Assembly (NCBI GenBank): GCA_040005235.1
Contig: JBDTZG010000011.1
Span: 57,785 to 121,784 of the forward strand
Source of the DNA: Acidobacteriota bacterium
Lineage (GTDB): Bacteria; Acidobacteriota; Thermoanaerobaculia; Multivoradales; UBA5704
Reading direction: 5' to 3'
DNA length: 64,000 nucleotides
The position numbers and the translations under genes are program-made. Under the pieces are notes generated by a model. The model had not been told where the DNA came from and ran no database searches. It saw nothing but the letters and a program-made list of their open reading frames with translations. Positions 52,054 to 64,000 of the stretch are shown piece by piece; the first letter of the stretch is position 1, and every line of letters starts with the position of its first letter.

Positions 52054-53553
52054 CTACGGCGTCGGAGCCGAAGCTTCCGCGGTTGCCGCCGGCTCGGATT
52101 TAGCCGGCTCCTCCCACCCGCCCCCCAGTGCCTTGAACAGAGCTACTGCCGCCACCAGCTCGTCCCTCCGGACTTGGGTCCAGGTGATTTGCGCGAGGAA
52201 TTGGCTGCGTTGGGCGTCGAGGACTTCGAAGTAGGAGGACTCTCCGGCGTCGTAGCGGATGTCGGCGAGGTTTCTGGCGCGGCCCAGGGCTTCGACCTGG
52301 CGGGCTCGGGCTTCTCGTTCTTCGATTCCGGTCGAGCGGGCGACGAGGGCATCTTCGACCTCGGCGAACGCCGTTTGGATCGACTTCTGGTAGACGGCTT
52401 CGGCTTGGTGTTCGCGGGCGGTGGCAGCTTCCACCTGGCGGCGGGTGCGGCCGGCGTTCCAGATCGGCTGGAGGACGCCGAGCGCGGCCTGCCAGATTCC
52501 CGTTCCGGAGCCGAACAGGTCGGCAAGGTCGGTGCTTTCCGAGCCGGCGTAGCCGGTGAGCGAGATCGAGGGGAAGTACGCCGCGCGGGCGATGCCGATG
52601 CGGGCGTCCGCCGCGATCAGGCGCTGCTCGGCGGCGACCAGGTCGGGCCGGCGGACGAGGAGCTGAGAGGGCAGGCCGACAGGGACCTCCGGCAGGGTCG
52701 GAGATTCGAGCGAGCTTCCGGCGTGATCGATACTGCCGCCGATCCGTCCCAGCAGGACGTTCAGCCGATTTTCGGTCTGGCGGATCGCGCGGTGGAGCGC
52801 GGGAACGGTCGCTTCGGTCGAGGCCACTTCGGACTGGGCCTGGGCGAGATCGAGCTCTGAGATGGTGCCCGCGTCGTAGCGCGCTTTTTGCAGGCGGACC
52901 GATTCGCCCCTCGTGCCCAGGGTATCGCGGGCGATCGCGAGTTGGGCGTCGAACGAGAGCAGGTCGAACCAGGCGGTCGCTATCTCGGAGGCGAGGGCGA
53001 GCCTGATGTTTCTTTGTCCTTCTTCCGTCGCCAGCAGCTCCGCCCGCGCGGCTTCCGTGGCGCGGCGATAGCGACCCCAGAAGTCGAATTCGTACGAGAT
53101 GCCTACGGTCGTGCGGAACGAATCGAATTCGAGCGGTACCCCGGGCGGAAACTGCCCCGAGGCGTTTGAGAATCGGGTGCGCGAGGCCCCGCCGTTGGCG
53201 TCGATCTCGGGGAACTGCTCGGCGCGGGCGAAACCGGCGAGCGCGCGGGCTTCTTCCACCCGTGCCGCCGCGGCGGCGAGGTCCTGGTTGGCGCCGAGCG
53301 CCTCGTCCACCAGCCGGTCGAGGTTCGGATCGGCGAACAGTTTCCACCAGGCGTCGGGGATGGCCGAGGCGGACCCGGCGGCTTGAGAATAAGCCTCGGG
53401 CAATGCGACCTTGGGGCGCTCGTACTTCGTCCGGAGCGAAGCGCAACCGGTGAGCAGCACGGCGGCGGTGGTGAGAGCCAGGCCGAGACCTGCATATCGA
53501 ACAGCCCGGAGCCCGGAACGGAGACTCGGAGCGGAGGGGCGGAAGGGAATCAT
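52054..53553 (-). CDS. RND outer-membrane factor lipoprotein (OprM/NodT family)
   Basis: Lipobox LTGC, WWKLFADP, LPSQLLVRRPD, LFKALGGGW. Confidence 0.93.
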   Translation of the reverse strand: MIPFRPSAPSLRSGLRAVRYAGLGLALTTAAVLLTGCASLRTKYERPKVALPEAYSQAAGSASAIPDAWWKLFADPNLDRLVDEALGANQDLAAAAARVEEARALAGFARAEQFPEIDANGGASRTRFSNASGQFPPGVPLEFDSFRTTVGISYEFDFWGRYRRATEAARAELLATEEGQRNIRLALASEIATAWFDLLSFDAQLAIARDTLGTRGESVRLQKARYDAGTISELDLAQAQSEVASTEATVPALHRAIRQTENRLNVLLGRIGGSIDHAGSSLESPTLPEVPVGLPSQLLVRRPDLVAAEQRLIAADARIGIARAAYFPSISLTGYAGSESTDLADLFGSGTGIWQAALGVLQPIWNAGRTRRQVEAATAREHQAEAVYQKSIQTAFAEVEDALVARSTGIEEREARARQVEALGRARNLADIRYDAGESSYFEVLDAQRSQFLAQITWTQVRRDELVAAVALFKALGGGWEEPAKSEPAATAEASAPTP

Positions 53554-56500
53554 GAAGCGCTCCTTTCAACGGTCACGCGGCGCGCCGAGATCGGGTCGGT
53601 TTCGTCGAGGTCCGGTTTCGGCTCTTTGTCTCTGGACACCCAGCGGTAGAAGAGCGGGATGAACAGCACGGCGACGAGTGTGGCGACCAACATGCCGCCG
53701 ACCACTCCGGTGCCCATCGAGCGGCGGGCCGCGGAGCCCGCGCCGGTCGAAAGCGCGAGCGGCAGAACGCCGAGGATGAACGCGAACGAGGTCATCAGAA
53801 TCGGCCGGAAGCGCAGCCGGGCCGCCTCGGCCGCGGCTTCGATGACCGATTTGCCCTGCTCGCGTTGCTGAGAGGCGAACTCGACGATCAGAATCGCGTT
53901 CTTGGCCGAGAGTCCGATCAGGGTCACCAAACCGATCTGGAAGTAGACGTCGTTCGGCATGCCGCGGAGATAGACCGCAACCAGGGCGCCTAAGAACGCG
54001 AACGGCACCGAGAGGAGAACCGCGATCGGCAGCGACCACTTCTCGAACTGGGCGGCGAGGATCAAGAACACGAACACCATGCCGAACAGCAGAACCTGGG
54101 TGGAGGAGCCGCCGCTCTTCTTTTCCTGATAGGCGCTGCCGGTCCAGGCGATGCCGAAGCCCGGCGGCAGTTCCTTGGCGGCGACCTCTTCGACCGCGGC
54201 CAGCGCCTCGGACGAGCTTCGGCCCGGCGCCGGGGCGCCGAGGATCTTGATCGACGGATAGAGGTTGAACCGTTCGAGCGTCTCGGCGCCCGCGCTGTAG
54301 TCGAGCGTGAGCAGCGAGGAGAGCGGCACCATCGAGCCGCTGCTCGAACGGACGAAGCTGCGGATGAGGTCCTCGGGCTTCGCGCGGTACTCGGCGTCGG
54401 CTTGGACCTGGACGCGGAAGACCCGGCCGGCCTTGTCGAAGTCGTTGACGTAGAGCGAGCCGAACGACGCCTGGAGGGTCGAAAAGACGTCATCGACCGA
54501 GACGCCGAGCGACTTGGCCTTCTCCCGGTCGAGGCGGACGTGGATCTGCGGCGAGTCGGCGCGGAAGAGCGAATACGCGCCGAACAGACGCTTGTCCTGG
54601 TTCAGCTTGCCCATCAGCTGTTGGGCTACCTGGTTCAGGCGCGCGGTGTCGCCCTCGCCGCGGTTTTGGACGTAGACCTCGAAGCCGCCGGTTTGGCCCA
54701 GGCCTTGGATCGGCGGCGGGTTGAAGCCGAACACCTGCGCCTCTTTGATCCCGGCGATCCCGCCGAAGAAGCGGCCGAGCGTGGCGTCGAGCGACAGGTT
54801 CGGCGTCTTTCGATCGCGCCAGTTCTTCAAGATGACGAACATGGTCGAGACCGAGCCTTTCGAGCCGCCGCCGATGAAGTCGAGACCGTTGATCGTCGCC
54901 ACGTGCTCGACCGCAGGATCGGCGCGCAGGAAGGTTTCGACCCGTTCGGCCACCGCATGCGTGCGTCCGAGCGTCGCCCCTTCGGGCAGCAGCGCGGCCG
55001 CGATGAAGAAGCCTTGGTCCTCGGCCGGAACGAGCGCGCCGGGGACTTTGCCGAACATGAAGATGGCGCCGACCACGACGAGCGTGAAGAGCACGGCGCC
55101 GAGCGCCGGCAGTCCGAGCAGCCAGCGGACGGCGCGCACGAAATGGCCGGTGCCGTTGTCGAAACGGTGGTTGAAGCCGCGGAAGAACGCGCCGAGCGGA
55201 CCGCGCGGCTCGCGATGCTCGCGCAGGACGAGGGCGCAGAGGGCGGGGGTGAGGGTCAAGGCGACGAGCCCCGAGATCGCGACCGAGATCGCGACGGTGA
55301 TCGCAAACTGGCGGTAGAGCTGACCCGCGAGGCCGCCCAGGAACGCGACCGGCACGAATACCGAAATGAGCACGAGGACGATCGCGACCACCGGGCCGGT
55401 GACCTCGGTCATCGATTCGAACGCCGCCTCGCGGGCGGACTTGCCCTCGGTACGCATGATGCGTTCGGTGTTTTCGAGCACGACGATCGCGTCGTCGACG
55501 ACGATGCCGATCGCCAGGACCAACCCGAACAGGGTGAGCGTGTTGATCGAAAAGCCGAGGGCGTACATGCCGGCGAACGTGCCGATCAGCGACACCGGCA
55601 CGGCGACCATTGGAATCAGCGTCGCGCGGAAGCTCTGGAGGAACAGGTAGACCACCAGGAGCACTAGCAGCAGCGCCTCGGCGAGGGTTTTGATCACCTC
55701 TTCGATCGACACCTGGACGAACCGCGTGGTGTCGAACGGAATCTGGTACTCAATACCCGCCGGGAACGATTTGGACAGCTCGTTGAGCTGCTTGATCACG
55801 CCGTCGGCGGTGGCGAGCGCGTTGGCGCCCGGCTGGAGGAAGACGCCGATGAAGATCGCCTGTCGGCCGTCGAGGCGCGCCTCGGAATCGTAGGAACTGG
55901 AGCCCAGCTCGACCCTCGCCACGTCGCCCAGCCGTAGGATCTTGCCGTCCGGTTGCGCCCGCAGGACGATCGCCTGAAATTGTTCCGGCGTCTTCAGCCG
56001 GTCTTCGGCGGTGACCGTGTAGGTCAGCTCCTGTTCCGTGCTCGCCGGCCCCTGGCCGATCTTGCCGACCGCGAACTGCGCGTTCTGCTCGCGGATCGCG
56101 GCGGCGACGTCGTTAGGCGTGAGGCTGTAGAGCGCCAGCTGGTCGGGGTGCAGCCAGATCCGCATCGCGTAGTCGCGGGCGCCGAAGATCTGCGCATTGC
56201 CGACGCCGGGAACGCGCTTCAAGGGCTCGAGAATGTTGATCGAAATGTAGTTCGACAGGTACACCGGGTCGTAGCGCCCGCCGGGCGACGAGAAGGTGAC
56301 GATCTGGATGAACGAGTTGCTCTGTTTCTGGACCGTGACGCCGTTCCGGCGCACCTCTTCGGGCAGGCGCGGCTCGGCGAGGCGGACGCGGTTGGACACG
56401 TTGTTCGCCGCGAGATCGATGTCGGTGCCGATCTCGAAAGTCACCGTGGTGGTCACGAGCCCGCTCGAAGTCGAGATCGAGCTCAGGTAGAGCATTCCCT

Positions 56501-56720
56501 CGACGCCATTGATCTGCTCTTCGATCGGCGCGGCGACGGTTTTCTGGAGCGCTTCGGCGGTGGCGCCCGGATAGATCGAGGTCACCGTGATCTGCGGCGG
56601 CGCGATCTCGGGATATTGCGCGATCGGCAACGACTTGATCGCGACGAAGCCCGCGAGCAGGATGACGATCGAGACGACGCTGGCGAAGATGGGGCGACGA
56701 ATGAAGAAGTGCGAAAACAT
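53550..56720 (-). CDS. HAE1 RND efflux permease (AcrB/MexB family)
   Basis: FFIRRPIFA, LPIAQYPEIAPP, GIVVDDAIVV, LSAKNAILIVEFA, RFRPILMTS. Confidence 0.96.
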   Translation of the reverse strand: MFSHFFIRRPIFASVVSIVILLAGFVAIKSLPIAQYPEIAPPQITVTSIYPGATAEALQKTVAAPIEEQINGVEGMLYLSSISTSSGLVTTTVTFEIGTDIDLAANNVSNRVRLAEPRLPEEVRRNGVTVQKQSNSFIQIVTFSSPGGRYDPVYLSNYISINILEPLKRVPGVGNAQIFGARDYAMRIWLHPDQLALYSLTPNDVAAAIREQNAQFAVGKIGQGPASTEQELTYTVTAEDRLKTPEQFQAIVLRAQPDGKILRLGDVARVELGSSSYDSEARLDGRQAIFIGVFLQPGANALATADGVIKQLNELSKSFPAGIEYQIPFDTTRFVQVSIEEVIKTLAEALLLVLLVVYLFLQSFRATLIPMVAVPVSLIGTFAGMYALGFSINTLTLFGLVLAIGIVVDDAIVVLENTERIMRTEGKSAREAAFESMTEVTGPVVAIVLVLISVFVPVAFLGGLAGQLYRQFAITVAISVAISGLVALTLTPALCALVLREHREPRGPLGAFFRGFNHRFDNGTGHFVRAVRWLLGLPALGAVLFTLVVVGAIFMFGKVPGALVPAEDQGFFIAAALLPEGATLGRTHAVAERVETFLRADPAVEHVATINGLDFIGGGSKGSVSTMFVILKNWRDRKTPNLSLDATLGRFFGGIAGIKEAQVFGFNPPPIQGLGQTGGFEVYVQNRGEGDTARLNQVAQQLMGKLNQDKRLFGAYSLFRADSPQIHVRLDREKAKSLGVSVDDVFSTLQASFGSLYVNDFDKAGRVFRVQVQADAEYRAKPEDLIRSFVRSSSGSMVPLSSLLTLDYSAGAETLERFNLYPSIKILGAPAPGRSSSEALAAVEEVAAKELPPGFGIAWTGSAYQEKKSGGSSTQVLLFGMVFVFLILAAQFEKWSLPIAVLLSVPFAFLGALVAVYLRGMPNDVYFQIGLVTLIGLSAKNAILIVEFASQQREQGKSVIEAAAEAARLRFRPILMTSFAFILGVLPLALSTGAGSAARRSMGTGVVGGMLVATLVAVLFIPLFYRWVSRDKEPKPDLDETDPISARRVTVERSAS

Positions 56721-56729
56721 TCGGCCGCC

Positions 56730-57947
56730 TCAGTTCTTGCCGCCGGCCGCATCGGCGCCGGATTTTGCCGCGTCGCCGGCCGGGGCGGTTGCGTCACCTA
56801 CCTTTACGGCAGCGCCCGGCTGGACTTTGACCGCGCCGTCGACGATCACCCGGTCGCCCGGCTCAAGCCCCGAATTGATGATCCAGTCCTGGCCCAGCCA
56901 ATCGCCCGCGACGACCGGCTTCACCACGGCCTTGCTCTCCGCATCCACCACGAACACGAACTTGCCTTCCGCGTTCTGCTGCACCGCGCGCTGCGGCACC
57001 AGGATCGCGCCCTGCCGCTCGACACCGAGCAGATGCACGCGCACGAACTGACCGGGCACGAGAGAGCTGGTGGCGTTCGGCAGCTGGGCGCGCCAATCTT
57101 GTGAGCCGGTGGCCGGATCGATCAGCGAATCGGCGAAGTTGACCCTGCCGCGCTCGGGGTGGACCGAACCGTCCGGCAGGACCAACTCGACCTCCAGGTT
57201 CCGGTTGCCCGGCGAGCTGAGCTTGCCGCTCGAAATGCCCTCGCGCAGCGCCCGCATGGTCTGGTCGGCGGCACTGAACCGCACCCAGATCGGCTGCACC
57301 TGAGAGATCCGGGTGAGCAGGCCGGTTTCGCCGGGACCGACCAGGCTGCCTTCCGATTTTTCGGCCCGGGAGGAGACGCCGGAGATCGGCGCCGTGACGC
57401 GCGTGTAGGAAAGGTTGAGCTTCGCCTCGTCCAGCCGCGCCTGCGCCGCCTGCACCGTGGCCTTGGCCTCGTCGACGTCGGACACCGCGTTGTCGTAATC
57501 CTTCCGCGGGGTCGCATGGGCGGCGAGCAACGGCTCCAACCGCGCGACGTCGCGCTGAGATCGGGCGAGCTTCGCCCGTTCTTCGGCCAGGCTCGCCTCC
57601 GCCGCCCGAACCTGGGCGCGGTACTCGGACGGATCGATCGTGAATAGGGCCTGGCCCTTTCGGATCGGCCGCCCTTCTTCATAGTCGCGCGAGAGCAAAA
57701 TGCCGGAGACCCGGGCGCGCACTTCGATCTCGCGCGAGCCTTCGATCCGGCCGGTCAGCTCGTAAGGAACGGGCACCGTGCGCGGCGCCACTGAGACCAC
57801 GGTGACCTGAGCGGGCGGCGGTGCTTGCGCGCCCGCTTCGGGCGCCTTTTTGCCGCATCCGGCGATCGAGAGCAGCGCCGACAGCGGCAGCACGACGGAG
57901 AAAACCCGGACGGCGATGCGCCGCACCGGTGGATTGGATCGATTCAT
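56730..57947 (-). CDS. RND periplasmic adaptor (AcrA family)
   Basis: Lipobox IAGC, EVRARVSG, LSYTRVTAPISG. Confidence 0.94.
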   Translation of the reverse strand: MNRSNPPVRRIAVRVFSVVLPLSALLSIAGCGKKAPEAGAQAPPPAQVTVVSVAPRTVPVPYELTGRIEGSREIEVRARVSGILLSRDYEEGRPIRKGQALFTIDPSEYRAQVRAAEASLAEERAKLARSQRDVARLEPLLAAHATPRKDYDNAVSDVDEAKATVQAAQARLDEAKLNLSYTRVTAPISGVSSRAEKSEGSLVGPGETGLLTRISQVQPIWVRFSAADQTMRALREGISSGKLSSPGNRNLEVELVLPDGSVHPERGRVNFADSLIDPATGSQDWRAQLPNATSSLVPGQFVRVHLLGVERQGAILVPQRAVQQNAEGKFVFVVDAESKAVVKPVVAGDWLGQDWIINSGLEPGDRVIVDGAVKVQPGAAVKVGDATAPAGDAAKSGADAAGGKN

Positions 57948-58711
57948 TGCTCGCTCCTAGTTGGATTCGCCTTCAAAGTACGAGAGGACGGCCGGGAAGT
58001 TCGGGGACGGATCCCGGGGTCGGCGCCATAGCCGTTGAGAAACACATCGACCGCGCGATGCACTTGATGAGTTACGCGCTCGGCCGAGAGGTCTACTTCG
58101 TCGCCGCAGACGGCGGCGAACAGGATTTCGCTCTTGAGCAGGGCGATGAAATGCCCCGCCGCCTCGCCCGAATCGTCGAGGCGCAGGAGGCCCGAGTGCG
58201 CGTTGGCGGCGAGATAGTCCGCCAACCGGGCGCGTACCCGGCCGGGGCCGCTCCGGAGCAGTGCCTCGCGCAGGGCTGGAAACTGATGCCCCTCGGCCAG
58301 GCACATGCGATGCCAGCGCAGCGCGTTGGGGCAGAGAATCATCCCCAGGAAACGCTCGCCGAACAACAGCAGCGCCTGTTCGATCGACTGCGATTCGAGC
58401 TCAGGTTCGGCGAACTCGATCAGGATCTGCTCCGAGATCTCGGCCACGATCGCCTCGAACAATCCCTCTTTCGAGCCGAACGCCGAGTACAGCGTCGCGA
58501 GCGAGCCGCCGGAGAGCTTCACCACGTCGCCGAGGCTGGTCTTTTCATAGCCCCGTTCGAGAAACAGCTCCGCCGCCGCTTCGATCATCGCGCGCCTTCG
58601 CACATCGCCCCGCCCGGAACCGGCGCCATGGGAAGCCGGAGAACCCGCGGGATCGGTAGAAGGTTGGGACGCGGCAGAGCCGCCGGGGGGAGAGAACAGA
58701 AGATTCGTCAC
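57944..58711 (-). CDS. TetR/AcrR-family regulator
   Basis: AAAELFLERGYEKTSLGDVV..GGSLATLYSAFGSKEGL. Confidence 0.92.
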   Translation of the reverse strand: MTNLLFSPPGGSAASQPSTDPAGSPASHGAGSGRGDVRRRAMIEAAAELFLERGYEKTSLGDVVKLSGGSLATLYSAFGSKEGLFEAIVAEISEQILIEFAEPELESQSIEQALLLFGERFLGMILCPNALRWHRMCLAEGHQFPALREALLRSGPGRVRARLADYLAANAHSGLLRLDDSGEAAGHFIALLKSEILFAAVCGDEVDLSAERVTHQVHRAVDVFLNGYGADPGIRPRTSRPSSRTLKANPTRSEQ

Positions 58712-58974: not shown

Positions 58975-59328
58975 TCAAGCTCCATTCTTCGCCGGGGCGG
59001 CGAGCGCGATGCATCGGTTGACCAGCTGGCCGATCTCTTCGGGTTGCAGCTTCCCTTGAAAACCGGGCATCGTCGTATAGCCGCGGGTGATGCGATCGTG
59101 GATCAGAACGCGCTCGCGCGCGGCCCCCATCGGCGAGTGAGTCAGATCGGCGCGTGGGTAGAGCGGCAGGATGCGCGGATCGCCCTTGCCGTCGGCGCCA
59201 TGGCAGTGGGCGCAGTTTTCGGCGAAAAGGATCTCGCCCGACCGAACCGCCTTCGTGGGTCCGCAACCGCCGATCAAAACGCCCAGGACGAACAGGGCTC
59301 CGAACCTGCCGGCGAACGAACGGCTCAT
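58975..59328 (-). CDS. Monoheme cytochrome c lipoprotein
   Basis: IGGC lipobox, CAHCHG, MPGF axial Met. Confidence 0.85.
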   Translation of the reverse strand: MSRSFAGRFGALFVLGVLIGGCGPTKAVRSGEILFAENCAHCHGADGKGDPRILPLYPRADLTHSPMGAARERVLIHDRITRGYTTMPGFQGKLQPEEIGQLVNRCIALAAPAKNGA

Positions 59329-59717
59329 TTCGGCGGCGGCTCCGGCGCCCGCTCGCCGCGCAGCACCTGGAGGTAGTAGGTGACTTGCCGGATCTCGTCC
59401 GCGCTCAGCTGGCTGCCGAAGGCCGGCATCTCGCCGAACACGCCGGTCTCGATCAGTGCCTCGATCGATCCCTCGTCCGCCGCCGCGGTCCGCCAGGTGT
59501 TGTCGCGCAAATCGGCATAGGCGTTGCCCATGTAGCGCGGCGTGTTGCCCCGGGCATCGACGCCATGGCATTCGGAGCAGTGCTTCCGGAACAGAACCTC
59601 GCCCGGCGAGCGGTGGGGGAACAGCTGATTGCAACCGGCGAGGCTCATCATCCCCACCATCGCAGCGGCCAGGCAGACGGCGAAAGCGAGCGGAAGCCTG
59701 GTTCGGCGCGGGATCAT
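59325..59717 (-). CDS. Monoheme cytochrome c lipoprotein
   Basis: LAGC lipobox, CSECHG, MPAF. Confidence 0.85.
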   Translation of the reverse strand: MIPRRTRLPLAFAVCLAAAMVGMMSLAGCNQLFPHRSPGEVLFRKHCSECHGVDARGNTPRYMGNAYADLRDNTWRTAAADEGSIEALIETGVFGEMPAFGSQLSADEIRQVTYYLQVLRGERAPEPPPK

Positions 59718-59868
59718 CGGCAAACTCCTCGGTTGGCGAATCGTAGAAGATCGACGGTTGGCGATATTATCCCACCTCGGTTCGGACCCCGAAACTCGAC
59801 GGCCCAAAGTTCAGGCGCAGGGGCGCGAGGTCAGTCTCCAAGCGAACGTCGCGCGGCAACCGTGTCGC

Positions 59869-60348
59869 GCACAGGTGCATCGCCGAATTGCACCGCTGCA
59901 ACGGGTCCGTGTACCTGTACGCTGCCGGATTGCACGACTACAAAATGCCCGCGCACCTGTGCACTGCCGGGTTGCACGACTGCAAAATGTCGGCGCACCT
60001 GTGCACTGCCGGAATGCACGACTGCAAAGTGTCGGCGCACCTGTGCACTGCCGGGTTGCACGACTGCAAAATGTCGGCGCACCTGTGCGCTGCCGGATTG
60101 CACAGCTACAAAATGCCGGCGTACCTGTGCACTGCAGGATTGCAGAACTGCAAAATGCTGGTACACCCGCGCAATGACGGATTGCAGAACTGCAAAATGC
60201 TGGTACACCCGCGCAATGACGGATTGCGGGACCGCAAAATGCCGGTGGACTTGCGCGGTGCGGGATTGTCCGACCGCAAATTGTCGACGCACTTGTGCGA
60301 TGCCAAATTGTACGACTGCAAGATGTCTATGTAGCTTTGCACTGCCGA
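59869..60348. repeat. 42-bp tandem repeat, about 11.5 units
   Basis: GCACCTGTGCACTGCCGGGTTGCACGACTGCAAAATGTCGGC at 59953, 59995, 60037 etc.; degenerate at both ends. Confidence 0.92.
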
Positions 60349-60360
60349 TGCGATCGCCGA

Positions 60361-60744
60361 TCAGGACAAATCCTCGCGCCCAGCTGGGGTGAGGTTAAAC
60401 CATGGCAGGACACCAAAATGATGGAGATCACGAGTGTCCCAGTTGAAGCGAGCGGTGAAACTCGCGGCCTGATGGTTGACGCTAAGGTAGTAGGCGGACC
60501 AGGGCGACTGTCGGTCATATTTCGTCGCAGTCCAGGCGTAAAAGAAGGGCTGAGGAATCCGCGGCCCATTCGCATCTGGAATCCAAATCTCGACTCCAAT
60601 CACAGCGACCTCGGCCTTTCCTGCCGCCTGGATCACAAGGCTGGCATCTCCTCCCTGCCATGCGGCCTCAGTACCGTGCCAGAAAGCCGTTTGCCTGAGC
60701 TTCTCGGGCAGCCAATCGCCAAAGGGCTGAGCAACCTCGATCAT
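60361..60744 (-). CDS. Hypothetical protein, possibly Imm40-like immunity protein
   Basis: AAWQGGDASLVIQ...VAVIGVEIW pattern; AAAGGAG RBS; lower GC. Confidence 0.5.
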   Translation of the reverse strand: MIEVAQPFGDWLPEKLRQTAFWHGTEAAWQGGDASLVIQAAGKAEVAVIGVEIWIPDANGPRIPQPFFYAWTATKYDRQSPWSAYYLSVNHQAASFTARFNWDTRDLHHFGVLPWFNLTPAGREDLS

Positions 60745-60812
60745 TGGGTAAGCTCCTTTACTGAACGGGCTGCGGAATCTTCTTCGACTCAAATTGAGCT
60801 GAAGCGAAACGC

Positions 60813-61646
60813 TCAGGCTGCGCCGTCAGCCCACCCCAACGCGCTCGCCTCGTCGAGCAGCCCCGGATCTTCGCCGGCCCCCTCGGCGAACCGGCGCTTT
60901 CCTCGTTCGAGCGCCTCTCCTGCGGCGGCCGGGTCGCCCGCCGCCCGCAACGCCTGGGCGGTGCGGATCTCGGCGTAGCCGGAAAGCCGCGCGCGCCGCC
61001 CTTCCGGGCCGGGGATCTTTTCGGCCACGTGCCCGGCCAATCGCGCCAGTTCGAGCGCTTCTTGAGGGTCGCTCTCGACTGAACGTGCGCTCCTCGCGGC
61101 GAGCAGCTCGCCCATCTCCCAGGTTTGAAAGTCCGGGAGGCGATTGATGATGAGCCTCTGTTCTACCACCCGCAGCCCTTCGACTTGACCCCAGAGCGCC
61201 TCGGCCGCCGCGCGATCTTCCGCCGTCGGCGGCCAGGATGAGCTTGGCCGGGAGCGGGCCGCCTCGCGTAGGGCGGCGATTTTCGGCGCCAGGCGGGCGC
61301 GGAGGTGGGTCCCTATCGTGGCCGCGACGGTCGGCCCGTCCTGGCCGCGGGTGCTCGCCCACTGGCGGAAGGCTTCGGACGCGACCTCTTCGATCCAGGG
61401 GAGCCTCACCCGGACGGAAGAGGCAAACTTGGCCATCCGCTTCCGCCGGGGGATGATCCTGCCGTACCGATAGAGGGTCATCTGCGAGGCGGTAATTTCC
61501 GCCAGGTCCGTTAGCTCGCTCACCTGCGGGCCGGCCAATGCGCTCAAGATCCGCACCTGGAGCGCCGAGCGCTCGGCCGGAACGTCTTCCGGAGGTTGCC
61601 ACCGTATCCGCAGCCGCCGCCTCGCCGCCTGTCGCTCGTTTCTCAC
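60813..61646 (-). CDS. Degenerate XRE-HTH plus helical-domain protein (short paralogue of 62101-63540)
   Basis: ELTDLAEITASQMTLYRYGRIIP HTH-like segment; DRAAAEALW...FQTWEMGELL..S...DP..ALELARLA..VAEKIPGPE aligns with the neighbour. Confidence 0.75.
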   Translation of the reverse strand: MRNERQAARRRLRIRWQPPEDVPAERSALQVRILSALAGPQVSELTDLAEITASQMTLYRYGRIIPRRKRMAKFASSVRVRLPWIEEVASEAFRQWASTRGQDGPTVAATIGTHLRARLAPKIAALREAARSRPSSSWPPTAEDRAAAEALWGQVEGLRVVEQRLIINRLPDFQTWEMGELLAARSARSVESDPQEALELARLAGHVAEKIPGPEGRRARLSGYAEIRTAQALRAAGDPAAAGEALERGKRRFAEGAGEDPGLLDEASALGWADGAA

Positions 61647-61684
61647 CGGTGATCTCCCCGCGGGCGGGCGTTCCGTTCCATGAT

Positions 61685-61712
61685 CGCGGCACCCAAAATT
61701 TTGGGTAACGCG
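61685..61712. promoter_or_regulatory. Palindromic operator candidate
   Basis: Perfect 16-bp ACCCAAAATTTTGGGT (61691-61706) with symmetric CGCG arms. Confidence 0.6.
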
Positions 61713-61799
61713 GTGAACCCCGAAACGACGAGTCCCGCCCCGGGTGAGACCGACCCTATCGGCCGGCCGCAGCCCGGGCGAACCAAGGAGACCTCACCC

Positions 61800-62096
61800 A
61801 TGACCATCCCCACGAAGCGCCTTTTCGTCCTCCTGCCGCTCACCCTGCTGCTCGCCCTGCCGGCCGGCGCGATGCCGAGGGGGGATTCCCCGTCGATCCT
61901 GGCCCGCCTCTCCGGCTTCCTCTCCGCGCTCTGGGCCGAAGGCGGGTGCATGATCGACCCTAACGGCGGCTGCACGACTGCACCGATCGTGAGCGACGAG
62001 GGTTGCATGATTGATCCGAACGGCAGGTGCAAAGACTCGTCGATCGTGAGGGATGAGGGCTGCATGCTCGACCCGAACGGCAGGTGTCGGCAGTAA
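61800..62096 (+). CDS. Secreted 98-aa peptide precursor with three GCM(I/L)DPNG(G/R)C repeats
   Basis: AAGGAG RBS 61785-90; Sec signal ending PAGA; 19-aa-period repeats with synonymous codon changes. Confidence 0.85.
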   Translation: MTIPTKRLFVLLPLTLLLALPAGAMPRGDSPSILARLSGFLSALWAEGGCMIDPNGGCTTAPIVSDEGCMIDPNGRCKDSSIVRDEGCMLDPNGRCRQ

Positions 62097-62100
62097 CTCC

Positions 62101-63540
62101 TCACACCGCTTCGACACCAAAAGACCTCCAGGCGACGGCCGCCGCTCTCGCCAGGGCGGCCGTCGCCACCTGGCGCTCGATCGCTTGAAGGAACAGCCAG
62201 AGGCTCGCGAGCTCTTCACGCCGGGCCTTATGGGCGTGGAAAGTCGGCAGCACCCCGGCCAACCGGCGCGCGGCTTCGGCCGGCCGGCCGGCTTCGAGTA
62301 GTAGTGCCGAGAGCTCGAGGGCGGCGAGCGCGGCGTCAAACGACATCTTTCGGCGGTGGAAGCGGTCGAGGATGTCGGCGAGCGCTTCGATGGCCTCGGT
62401 CCGGCGGCCGTGGGCCGCGGCAAGAATCGCTTCGAGCCATTCTAGCCGGAGCATATCGACGTCGTGATTCTGGGCGAACGCCAGCGCACGGACCTCGGGC
62501 ATCAGCGCTTCCATTTCCGCCACTCGATCGAGATAAATGAGGTTTGCGGCCAGGTTGAATCGCGTTACGCAGCGCAGGCGATCGTCGGTGCCGGCATCAA
62601 CCAGCGGAAGCGCCTCCCGGAGCGTCGCAATCGCCGCCTCGAAGTTCCCGGCTTGTTGATAAATGCCCGCGGTCTGCACGGCAACGCGAGCTGACAGTAC
62701 GAGATCTCCGGAAACGTCGATGGATTCAAGGCAGGCCAGCGCCTCGGCGAACCGGCGTTGGTTGCGCCGGAGCGAAGCCTTGAGATTCGGGATTCGAGTC
62801 AAATCCAGCGGGATCACCTCTCCCTCCTCCACCGCCGGTAACAGCCGCTCAACCTCGGCAAACGCCGCGTCCGCCGCTTCGAGGTCGCCCTGCACCCTCT
62901 GGGCGTTGCCCAGGTGCGCCCAGCAGAAGGCGGCGAGGAAGTCGAGGAAGCGTTCCGGCCCGGTGACGTTACTAGCCACTTCCAGAGCCAGCTCGGCGAG
63001 AGCTCGGCACGCGGCCGGGTCGTGCGGCGCCGCGGCGAGGCTCTCCTGGCAGAGCCGCTCGGCGAGGCCCCAGGTCCAGAACATCGGGCGCGCGGCGACG
63101 AGCGGGCGGCGCTCCGGGTCGCAGGCGGCGAGGATCTGCCAGAGGTGCTCGGCCTCCTCCCGTTCGGCGGCGAAGCGGGCGGCGCGGGCCTCGGCGACCA
63201 GGTCGTAGCGCAGTTCGCCGAGGACGTCCACGAGGGCGCCCTCGATCACCAGGGCCATCGGGGGCGAGATCCAAGGGTCGGCCTGTTCGAAGCCCGAGAC
63301 CGCTTCGGTCAGGCCGTAGACGATCTCGATCACCCCGGGCGGCGGGTTCAAGCTCCCCGCCAGCTCCTGGTAGCGCCTGCGGCCGATCACCTTGGCGCGG
63401 CCGGTTTCGACCTCGCGAAACAGACTGAGCCGCCCGAGCCGCAGACCCGCCTCCCCCTGGCCGATGCGGAGCAACACGCGCACCACGCGCAACGCATGGC
63501 ACGGCACGGGGACGGGTGCTTTCGGTTCCTTCGGTTCCAC
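62101..63540 (-). CDS. Degenerate XRE-HTH plus TPR protein (RRNPP-like architecture)
   Basis: GTG after AGGAG; N-terminal ALRVVRVLLRIGQGEAG...REVETGR; TPR-like WAHLGNAQRVQGDLEAA, ASLRRNQRRFAEAL, AGIYQQAGNFEAAI, ALAALELSALLLEAGR. Confidence 0.8.
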   Translation of the reverse strand: MEPKEPKAPVPVPCHALRVVRVLLRIGQGEAGLRLGRLSLFREVETGRAKVIGRRRYQELAGSLNPPPGVIEIVYGLTEAVSGFEQADPWISPPMALVIEGALVDVLGELRYDLVAEARAARFAAEREEAEHLWQILAACDPERRPLVAARPMFWTWGLAERLCQESLAAAPHDPAACRALAELALEVASNVTGPERFLDFLAAFCWAHLGNAQRVQGDLEAADAAFAEVERLLPAVEEGEVIPLDLTRIPNLKASLRRNQRRFAEALACLESIDVSGDLVLSARVAVQTAGIYQQAGNFEAAIATLREALPLVDAGTDDRLRCVTRFNLAANLIYLDRVAEMEALMPEVRALAFAQNHDVDMLRLEWLEAILAAAHGRRTEAIEALADILDRFHRRKMSFDAALAALELSALLLEAGRPAEAARRLAGVLPTFHAHKARREELASLWLFLQAIERQVATAALARAAAVAWRSFGVEAV

Positions 63541-63738
63541 CAATCTCGCTCCTACGTTCTGAAGGGAATCTCTAACAGAATAGGTTGCCGCCACGGCACT
63601 TTTCGTGACAAGAAAAGACGATTTCGAGTGAACTTGTGGAACCTGAGTGCTTGGCGCTGCGCGAAATCGCAAGCCAGTTGCGGTTTTGAAATTGGCCCAA
63701 GAAAACAGTGGGGGCGGCAAGCCCCGAAAGACTCCACA

Positions 63739-64000
63739 TCCGGACGATCCGGCCCCCGGTATCGACCGTTGCGACCTGGGTCCGGACGGCTCGGACCTCG
63801 ATCCCAATCGTTGCGACCTGGGTCCGGACGGCTCGGACCTCGATCCCAATCGTCGCGACCTGGGTCTGGACGGTTCGGACCTGGGTCCCGATCGGTGCGA
63901 CCTGGGTCCGGGCGGCTCAGACCTGGGTCCCGGCCGCTGCGACCTGGTCCGGACGGCTCGGACCTCGATCCCAATCGTCGCGACCTGGGTCTGGACGGTT
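63739..64000. repeat. 21/42-bp tandem repeat, runs off the window edge
   Basis: GTTGCGACCTGGGTCCGGACGGCTCGGACCTCGATCCCAATC units; related to 15898-16322. Confidence 0.9.

Follow-up and report, generated by a model that had tools for sequence, protein, structure and literature searches.

A DPxG-hairpin peptide gene flanked by TPR regulators in Acidobacteriota, in a cassette resembling RRNPP-type signaling loci

The closest described counterparts of the locus reported here are the RRNPP(A) systems (PlcR-PapR, NprR-NprX, Rap-Phr, AimR-AimP, Rgg-SHP, and PrgX), in which the gene for a Sec-exported pro-peptide lies beside that for a cytoplasmic receptor combining a helix-turn-helix (HTH) with a tetratricopeptide repeat (TPR) solenoid. 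Peptide signals are described as a Bacillota mode, and their reading by cytoplasmic TPR receptors is held to be a speciality of that phylum (PMC10075063). Our literature searches found no paper linking RRNPP with Acidobacteria, and the titles and abstract openings returned for Thermoanaerobaculia with quorum sensing and peptide contained nothing relevant, nor did the results for RRNPP in diderms. Here, we describe a comparable arrangement in a 64,000-nucleotide stretch of DNA from an Acidobacteriota genome (assembly GCA_040005235.1, contig JBDTZG010000011.1, forward-strand positions 57,785 to 121,784), referred to below as the window, in which a short open reading frame (ORF) encodes a 98-aa pre-pro-peptide (P0001; 61800 to 62096, plus strand, with the stop codon at 62094 to 62096). 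This gene is not an orphan: it is the center of a conserved regulator-peptide-regulator cassette with a palindromic candidate operator, a context that points to signaling and not to a free-standing natural product. We consider it highly probable that the secreted DPxG-hairpin peptide is functionally coupled to the TPR regulators next to it.

The cassette shares with RRNPP(A) systems the placement of a gene for a pro-peptide with a predicted Sec signal beside that of an HTH and TPR-solenoid cytoplasmic receptor, a palindromic box in the regulated promoter, and the occurrence of many diverged paralogous pairs in one genome; furthermore, the best structural matches of its long regulator include Rap, NprR, and PlcR. 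It departs from them in its host, which belongs to the Acidobacteriota, with an outer membrane, and not to the Bacillota or their mobile elements, and in a receptor for which no sequence-level link to the family was found. The cassette peptide has 2 to 5 Cys-closed DPxG hairpins, whereas the RRNPP signal is one short linear C-terminal oligopeptide. The gene order also differs, being convergent in the cassette, and the opposite flank carries another regulator that is often truncated.

The start of the peptide ORF is marked by AAGGAGA at 61785 to 61791, 8 nt 5′ of the ATG, and by a Met1 that aligns across paralogues. The product opens with a predicted Sec-type signal peptide (residues 1 to 24; 61800 to 61871, plus strand), judged by eye from an n-region MTIPTKR, a 13-residue hydrophobic core, and an A-G-A before the predicted cut, together with an AlphaFold2 helix at residues 5 to 18; in alignments, Sec-type n, h, and c regions of the N terminus are kept across the peptide family, with the signal again judged by eye. 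Next comes an amphipathic pro-helix, LARLSGFLSALWA (residues 33 to 45; 61896 to 61934, plus strand; helical in the AlphaFold2 model), ending in a near-invariant Trp45 that is invariant in one family alignment (A1) and at least 90% conserved in another (A3). The three cores that follow, EGGCMIDPNGGC, DEGCMIDPNGRC, and DEGCMLDPNGRC, begin at 61938, 61995, and 62052, an exact spacing of 57 bp, and are separated by the spacers TTAPIVS and KDSSIVR. Each contains one ring or hairpin unit on the plus strand bounded by a C-x7-C pair. The first is C50-C58 (CMIDPNGGC; 61947 to 61973), recognized from the sequence and from AlphaFold2 strands at residues 50 to 52 and 58 to 60; the second is C69-C77 (CMIDPNGRC; 62004 to 62030), on the same two kinds of evidence; and the third is C88-C96 (CMLDPNGRC; 62061 to 62087), placed by sequence and loop alignment and followed by a two-residue tail, RQ. 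Tandem Repeats Finder reports a period of 57 over 61947 to 62086 (2.5 copies, 80% matches, score 180).

Codon-level comparison by the Nei-Gojobori method gave, for the 12-codon cores taken in pairs, proportions of synonymous differences (pS) of 0.57 to 0.77 against proportions of nonsynonymous differences (pN) of 0.03 to 0.17, on only ~7 synonymous and ~29 nonsynonymous sites; the single pair of spacers gave a pS of 0.55 and a pN of 0.39. Because pN falls far below pS, albeit on small counts, the cores appear to be old copies held alike at the protein level. AlphaFold2, run on the peptide with 114 sequences, returned no global fold (predicted template modeling score [pTM] of 0.28, mean predicted local distance difference test [pLDDT] of 68.9) and placed helices at residues 5 to 18 and 33 to 45 and one short hairpin per C-x7-C, with the cysteines on facing strands. 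The units are conserved β-hairpin modules joined by flexible linkers rich in Ala, Pro, Ser, and Thr, and the ORF is, as judged from its sequence, a real gene for a multiunit peptide under purifying selection, with export predicted. A preliminary description of this locus had proposed most of these features. Its three cores at 57-bp spacing with the spacers given above agree with the coordinates and with Tandem Repeats Finder, its view that the cores differ synonymously under protein-level selection is borne out by the pS and pN values, and its layout of signal, amphipathic helix, and cores matches the sequence features and the two AlphaFold2 helices. Its repeating unit, a C-x7-C with a DPNG turn, corresponds to a C-x7-C/DPxG hairpin module that is conserved in the AlphaFold2 model and in 461 loops from the wider family. 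It had staked its case on conservation of Cys and DPxG among homologues; the Asp, Pro, and Gly of the turn are kept in nearly all of these C-x7-C loops, and Cys-less relatives keep DPxG alone. The 9-residue rings cut free by proteolysis that it also proposed are hypothetical.

A hidden Markov model (HMM) built from clear paralogues identified 25 family ORFs, including that of the window, in the host genome (6.2 Mb in 140 contigs, rated 100% complete). Ten are clear Cys-type genes, each with 2 to 4 C-x7-C units. Other members are without cysteines, yet their signal, their W..L..LW helix, and a G-x-x-[ILVA]-D-P-x-G turn remain, as in GLEADPNGRP. Since the Cys-less members retain it, the DPxG turn is the constant of the superfamily, and the Cys pair looks like an added staple. 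A wider profile, built from 10 paralogues and searched against 1.84 billion representatives, matched 1321 clusters at E values of ≤1e-3 and 449 at ≤1e-10. The best 150 representatives are all 82 to 169 aa long and contain 461 C-x7-C loops, in which Asp3 is present in 442, Pro4 in 453, Gly6 in 457, and a Gly before the first Cys in 453. Positions 1, 5, and 7 of the loop vary freely, while at position 2, 406 of the 461 loops have I, L, or V. Proteins of the family carry 2 to 5 units, with three units in 90 and four in 33 of these best 150 representatives, and the tail after the last Cys is most commonly 2 residues (85 of the 149 representatives that have a C-x7-C) or 4 residues (36 of the 149).

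Pfam and NCBIfam hold no model for the peptide and no family for the short regulator, and structure matches of the peptide family in the Atlas all have template modeling (TM) scores below 0.4, with no family named. Of the 91 other genomes in the taxonomic family, 85 match the peptide profile, with up to 29 matches per genome; they represent 10 of the 11 genera. The profile matches none of 300 genomes sampled from the rest of the phylum at E values of ≤1e-5, a search in which 16 candidates were scored per genome and weak members could escape. Weak matches also appeared in some genomes of the same order in a single-protein search at E values of ≤1. Of nine related loci, eight come from metagenome-assembled genomes of the Thermoanaerobaculia or Thermoanaerobaculaceae and one from the Holophagales, and the Atlas clusters are mostly from Acidobacteriota. 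The peptide family is confined to Thermoanaerobaculaceae-like Acidobacteriota. Sequencing runs listed as carrying the sequence comprise four DNA runs (soil, root, and rhizosphere metagenomes) from one study, two of which may be the source of the present DNA, and no RNA run. No orthologue of the window peptide exceeding 60% identity was found in the seven other genomes of the genus, and its closest relative is a paralogue on contig C59 of the host (55 to 57% identity). Visible decay affects the paralogues C107 and C59_56847, and the first unit of C59_65559 is without its second Cys. A search for fused or longer forms had a sole result, P0151, a long secreted protein of 783 aa from a metagenome with ~40 tandem x-[ILVM]-D-P-[ND]-G-[KR] units. 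It is poor in cysteines and matches no Pfam domain; here, a DPxG-type turn motif is used as a large repeat array.

The two ORFs that flank the peptide gene belong to one protein family, which clusters beside peptide genes of the host genome. The long regulator (~480 aa; 62101 to 63543, minus strand) is convergent with the peptide gene, with the two stops 4 nt apart, and its preferred start is TTG at 63543 or GTG at 63540, with AGGAG upstream. It consists of an N-terminal HTH-like bundle, one long helix, and a TPR solenoid, and AlphaFold2 models it well (mean pLDDT of 90.1, pTM of 0.81), with four to five helices in the N-terminal bundle and the long helix at residues 94 to 139. In three of the four paralogous long regulators that we tested, HTH_3 or HTH_31 scores above the Pfam cutoff, both fall below it in the fourth, and the rest of the protein scores as TPR. 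The short regulator (277 aa from GTG 61646; 60813 to 61646, minus strand) is divergent from the peptide gene and is paralogous to the N-terminal half of the long regulator, covering HMM positions 22 to 262. Orthologous short regulators of ~290 to 300 aa are present in relatives, and therefore, the truncated form is itself conserved. The start codon of these orthologues is the ATG in a conserved CCATGATC motif. Within the window (61643 to 61682, minus strand), this ATG opens a 12-codon frame (MERNARPRGDHR, then a stop) that is out of frame with the body of the short regulator, so the latter either starts at GTG 61646 or has suffered a 5′ frameshift. The range of the regulator family is as narrow as that of the peptide, with matches in 3 of 150 sampled genomes of the phylum at E values of ≤1e-20 and 10 candidates scored per genome.

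Pairing of peptide and regulator recurs throughout the host genome. A TPR-regulator homologue lies within 2.5 kb of 24 of the 25 family genes, and all 10 clear Cys-type genes have a full-length HTH and TPR gene in convergent orientation within 5 to 125 nt. Fourteen loci, which include all ten of these, carry HTH-type regulators in the layout seen in the window (a full-length convergent regulator, usually with a divergent second one), and one family locus, on C107, is decayed. Nine Cys-less genes, instead, share their strand with TPR proteins that have a conserved H-x4-C-x2-C N terminus and not an HTH (loci L085-L091, on contigs C103, C24, C42, C20, C52, C81, C104, and C126), and Pfam is blank on this N-terminal domain. 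An identity as a zinc-finger anti-sigma (ZAS) domain was considered and set aside, with no Pfam match at E values of ≤0.01 and a spacing of H-x4-C-x2-C; we describe the motif only.

The same association is found in other genomes. A convergent regulator is present at 33 of 33 unique foreign loci and a divergent second regulator at 27 of the 33 by a strict position rule, with three more visible on reading; since each locus is the best match of its genome, these loci are a biased sample. In one genus, none of 5 genomes has Cys-type peptides, yet 10 to 24 regulator matches occur per genome, and one of four loci read there holds a single-unit Cys-less peptide, ending GLAGDPNG, directly upstream of a TPR gene. 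Since peptide and TPR part stay together when output domain and gene order change, it is the TPR part that is the peptide's constant partner, and this persistence is the strongest argument that TPR domain and peptide would work together. Regulators are the recurrent neighbors within 1.5 kb of the 33 foreign loci, with no transporter, protease, or modifying enzyme among them. Likewise, neighbor clustering in the host genome found, besides regulators, no family that recurs beyond 3 to 5 loci and no recurrent immunity, export, or maturation gene, enzyme, or partner of the RRE type (recognition element of peptides that are made on ribosomes and modified after translation [RiPPs]). The remark in the preliminary description that no modifying enzyme lies nearby thus holds for the window, whose neighbors are a TetR-family gene, two cytochrome c genes, and the regulators, as well as for the 33 foreign loci, where neither modifying enzymes nor peptidases, which it had named as worth looking for, recur within 1.5 kb.

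A perfect 16-bp palindrome, ACCCAAAATTTTGGGT (61691 to 61706; arms at 61685 to 61698 and 61699 to 61712), lies in the divergent promoter region, 94 to 109 nt before the ATG of the peptide gene and 45 nt before the GTG of the short regulator, and is our candidate operator. Its 14-bp core occurs once in the 6.2-Mb genome. At the equivalent place, ~25 nt from the ATG of the short regulator and ~100 nt from that of the peptide, the closest paralogue (on C59) and its orthologues have AACCCAAAAACTTGGGTT or CCCAAATATTTGGG, and other cassettes have ACCCGTTTAAACGGGT, ACCTAAAAACTAGGT, or ACCGGAAAAGTCCGGT, within a related ACCC-AT-rich-GGGT frame. AT-centered 16-mers with at least 7 of 8 pairs matched were found upstream of 3 of the 25 family genes and of 4 of 666 control genes; sites outside these three strict palindromes are mostly imperfect or differently spaced and were read by eye. 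Such palindromes would fit a dimeric HTH protein with cassette-specific half-sites. Scans of 61400 to 62400 for sigma-70 promoters and T-run terminators returned no match, with consensus patterns that may not suit this phylum. Upstream of four Cys-less peptide genes (on C20, C52, C126, and C81), at a distance of 25 to 90 nt, is a conserved GC-rich hairpin, GCCCCCGCGGGCGCGGGGGC, preceded by AACGCGTT, which may be a shared leader, a repeat element, or a terminator.

We compared the AlphaFold2 model of the long regulator with known structures. Foldseek ranks LGN/Pins, O-GlcNAc transferase (OGT), and designed TPRs first and Rap proteins next, at TM scores of 0.56 to 0.60 by target. An exhaustive structural aligner gave Z scores of 21.6 for APPBP2, 20.1 for LGN, 20.0 for Pins, 19.7 for the Rap protein of phage phi105 with its peptide (root mean square deviation of 3.9, 290 aligned), 19.1 for RapH, 18.6 for NprR-NprX, 18.4 for RapI, 17.6 for the pLS20 Rap protein, 15.5 for MalT domain III, and 15.2 for PlcR-PapR, the last over model residues 10 to 374 with the HTH included. 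On this model, the fold is of the peptide-binding TPR solenoid type, and the regulator resembles an RRNPP receptor in architecture and may work like one, a resemblance short of family membership. Residues ~120 to 460 superpose at Z scores of 15 to 22 on peptide-binding TPR proteins (LGN/Pins, APPBP2, the TPR part of OGT, and MalT domain III), all of which hold extended peptides or ligands in the concave groove. Unlike the cassette regulators, these proteins, with the exception of MalT, are not HTH transcription factors, and they have no dedicated secreted peptide partner; the modeled similarity to general TPR proteins shows fold, not function.

Our preferred reading, which we put forward tentatively as plausible and not yet probable, is that the exported, disulfide-stapled hairpin peptide is the signal for its own flanking TPR regulators, operating in an RRNPP-like manner. 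We infer export, disulfides, processing, re-uptake, peptide-TPR binding, and palindrome binding as its successive steps. Sec export would release a pro-peptide of ~74 residues composed of one amphipathic helix and three G-C-x-[IL]-D-P-N-G-x-C hairpins; outside the cytoplasm, each Cys pair would most likely close a 9-residue disulfide ring, and the linkers might be cleaved. The peptide or a processed piece of it would then re-enter the cell and be sensed by the TPR solenoid of the long regulator. This protein and its truncated paralogue, both presumably cytoplasmic, would exert their effect through the 16-bp palindrome lying between their target peptide gene and the gene of the short form; the outcome would be an autoregulatory loop that reports density or kin, as in RRNPP systems. 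A wider proposal is more doubtful, namely, that Thermoanaerobaculaceae-type Acidobacteria have a peptide-pheromone language of their own, with private channels that could number up to dozens in a genome. A channel would pair a multiring Sec-exported precursor with a cognate TPR receptor (with HTH or H-x4-C-x2-C output), ring positions 1, 2, 5, and 7 would form the specificity code, and the whole could be either an independent invention or a very distant relative of RRNPP quorum sensing.

The evolution of the rings bears on this reading from both sides. At ring positions 1, 5, and 7, similarity within a protein (0.40) exceeds that in shuffles (mean of 0.20, maximum of 0.23). Among 20 pairs of proteins with at least 75% identity over the 22-residue stretch preceding the first ring, 116 of 240 comparisons at the four variable ring positions show identity, and the number of rings is unequal in 7 pairs. 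A conserved leader followed by fast-changing loop positions, as read from these sequences, would suit diverging signal specificities and, equally, antagonistic effectors.

Several observations weigh against a signal of this kind. The 20-pair result just given is biased toward its outcome, since the pairs were chosen on leader identity. All rings are identical in only 1 of 144 proteins, and the window peptide has three different rings; because the rings of one precursor are rarely alike, one receptor with one ligand is awkward. Structural matches of the long regulator are not specific, with eukaryotic TPR proteins scoring as high as Rap and NprR, and no RRNPP-specific sequence family was matched, Pfam giving generic TPR and HTH models only. 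For the long regulator of the window itself, Pfam gives TPR hits alone and leaves the HTH undetected, with a one-residue deletion in the HTH alignment. A PDB sequence search with the regulator returned only HipB (E value of 0.02) and OGT (E value of 0.022). Topology poses a further difficulty: the peptide is predicted to be exported, whereas both regulators are without an export signal, and the signal would therefore have to cross the outer and inner membranes to return, with no transporter or protease within 1.5 kb at the 33 foreign loci. The disulfide route is unclear, since Pfam gives no DsbB or VKOR match in a host genome rated as fully complete. Finally, the convergent order, with stops 4 nt apart, is unlike that of classical RRNPP pairs. 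A predicted complex of residues 90 to 480 of the long regulator with residues 25 to 98 of the pro-peptide scored 0.15 against a mark of 0.32, which weighs neither for nor against binding.

Elsewhere in the host genome are genes of possible relevance to uptake and to disulfide formation. Its only SBP_bac_5 gene (oligopeptide-binding, of lipoprotein type) lies with two permease-like ORFs at C8:64166-67907, ~3.4 kb from another cassette (C8:57949-60791), and genes for a secreted 444-aa protein and a 505-aa membrane protein stand in between. With 25 cassettes in 6.2 Mb, a rough estimate puts such proximity by chance at ~1 in 25, so we take it only as a lead, and the SBP_bac_5 gene with its permease-like neighbors shows uptake capacity only. 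Two DsbA-like (Thioredoxin_4) genes are present (C36:41185-41661 and C8:107069-107539), one of them within an open frame of 413 aa, which may include a further domain.

Of the alternatives, the one that survives best, unlikely as we consider it, is that the peptide is a regulated secreted effector. It would be the output of the cassette, with an extracellular job of its own (competition or antimicrobial action, metal or calcium binding, or a role in the envelope), and the regulators would switch it on in response to another cue sensed through the TPR. A Sec signal combined with this loop architecture is typical of stable extracellular peptides, the cassette has no uptake system, and the fast divergence of the rings and their variable number would also suit antagonistic molecules, but neighbor clustering found no recurrent immunity, export, or maturation gene beside the family genes. 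The conserved Asp and Asn/Asp in the tight turn could bind cations, and P0151, with its ~40 units in 783 aa, is an example of the motif forming an extended structural repeat; however, the Cys-less members speak against an essential role of the cysteines as metal ligands in the family. For an effector, it would moreover be costly to keep one or two private regulators for each of the 14 HTH-class genes in a genome, and the pairing tracks the TPR part through the swap of output domain and gene order, as expected if the TPR recognizes the peptide. Were the peptide an effector after all, the family would still be a novel class of small secreted peptides with disulfide loops, every member having its own private regulator.

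A second alternative, improbable in our estimation, is secretion-coupled feedback, in which the TPR would hold the unexported pre-peptide, for example, by its W..L..LW helix, in a chaperone-like manner, and export would free or change the regulator. The system would then report secretion flux with no need for re-uptake, and the topological difficulty of an exported ligand whose receptor stays in the cytoplasm would disappear. Type III secretion offers examples of TPR chaperones that also serve as co-regulators. The helix before the rings is the best-conserved segment besides the DPxG turn, is retained in Cys-less members, and stays constant between close relatives while the rings change. Yet the binding is hypothetical, Sec substrates normally leave the cytoplasm quickly and unfolded, and such feedback leaves unexplained why rings should evolve fast around a strict DPxG within the loop.

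We think it very improbable that, as the preliminary description raised among its alternatives, the gene encodes a multicore RiPP precursor whose cores are modified in trans, before or after export, by enzymes encoded elsewhere. The layout of a conserved leader-like helix followed by 2 to 5 similar cores is that of a multicore precursor, and the family is large, diverse, and unannotated. The leader carries a Sec signal, however, which puts the peptide beyond cytoplasmic RiPP enzymes, and neither next to the family genes of the host genome nor within 1.5 kb at any of the 33 foreign loci is there a recurrent enzyme, RRE-type partner, or dedicated transporter. The conserved Gly, Asp, Pro, and Gly are turn formers and not typical modification sites. 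A nonfunctional origin, as a chance ORF or a decaying repeat in high-GC DNA, can be dismissed as next to impossible despite the visible decay of some paralogues, given the ribosome-binding site, a pN well below pS, 1321 homologous clusters, and strictly conserved synteny.

Other known proteins resemble parts of the peptide. Multicopy pheromone and peptide precursors, such as yeast alpha-factor, repeat precursors of plants and fungi, and multicore RiPPs of the cyanobactin type, carry several similar units with spacers behind a common leader, and the window peptide is alike in this, its units being held similar by selection. The units within one peptide of the present family are similar but almost never identical (1 of 144 proteins), and, unlike such precursors, the family shows no evident processing signal for a known protease and no maturation enzymes nearby; release of the units is hypothetical. 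The turn of the ring, [ILV]-D-P-x-G-[RK], found also in P0151, presumably resembles the Y-D-x-x-G-R-L turn of YD/RHS repeats. P0001, however, has no Pfam RHS or YD match, and its isolated, Cys-stapled 9-residue loops differ from the continuous β-sheet shell of those proteins.

What is new about the cassette is its phylum, unexpected for a system of this known kind, and its unusual multiring peptide. If the RRNPP-like reading is true, peptide communication would be extended to a phylum with an outer membrane, the abundant and mostly uncultured Acidobacteria of soil and rhizosphere, and the cassettes would provide a large natural collection of orthogonal triplets of peptide, regulator, and operator. 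A function would be assigned to more than 1300 protein clusters that now lack annotation.

Minor features surround the cassette. A 13-bp perfect inverted repeat with an 11-nt loop (62131 to 62167, from an inverted-repeat scan) begins 35 nt past the peptide stop, within the 3′ end of the long regulator, and may form a stem-loop where the convergent transcripts end. Directly downstream of the short regulator, on the minus strand at 60361 to 60792, is a 143-aa ORF with no significant Pfam or NCBIfam match (best E value of 0.058), which was absent beside other cassettes in the clustering. To the left of the cassette lie two cytochrome c genes (58975 to 59807) and a TetR-family gene (57944 to 58711; TetR_N and TetR_C_7) adjoining large same-strand ORFs of 405 and 1056 aa (region 53550 to 58711); all of these seem to be usual chromosomal genes with no tie to the cassette. 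On either side of the cassette is a tandem array of 42-bp period, one at 59863 to 60327 (11 copies) and one at 63767 to 64000 (at least 5.5 copies, reaching the end of the contig). Weaker relatives of each array occur on 2 to 4 other contigs of the host genome, and the second array probably caused the assembly break.

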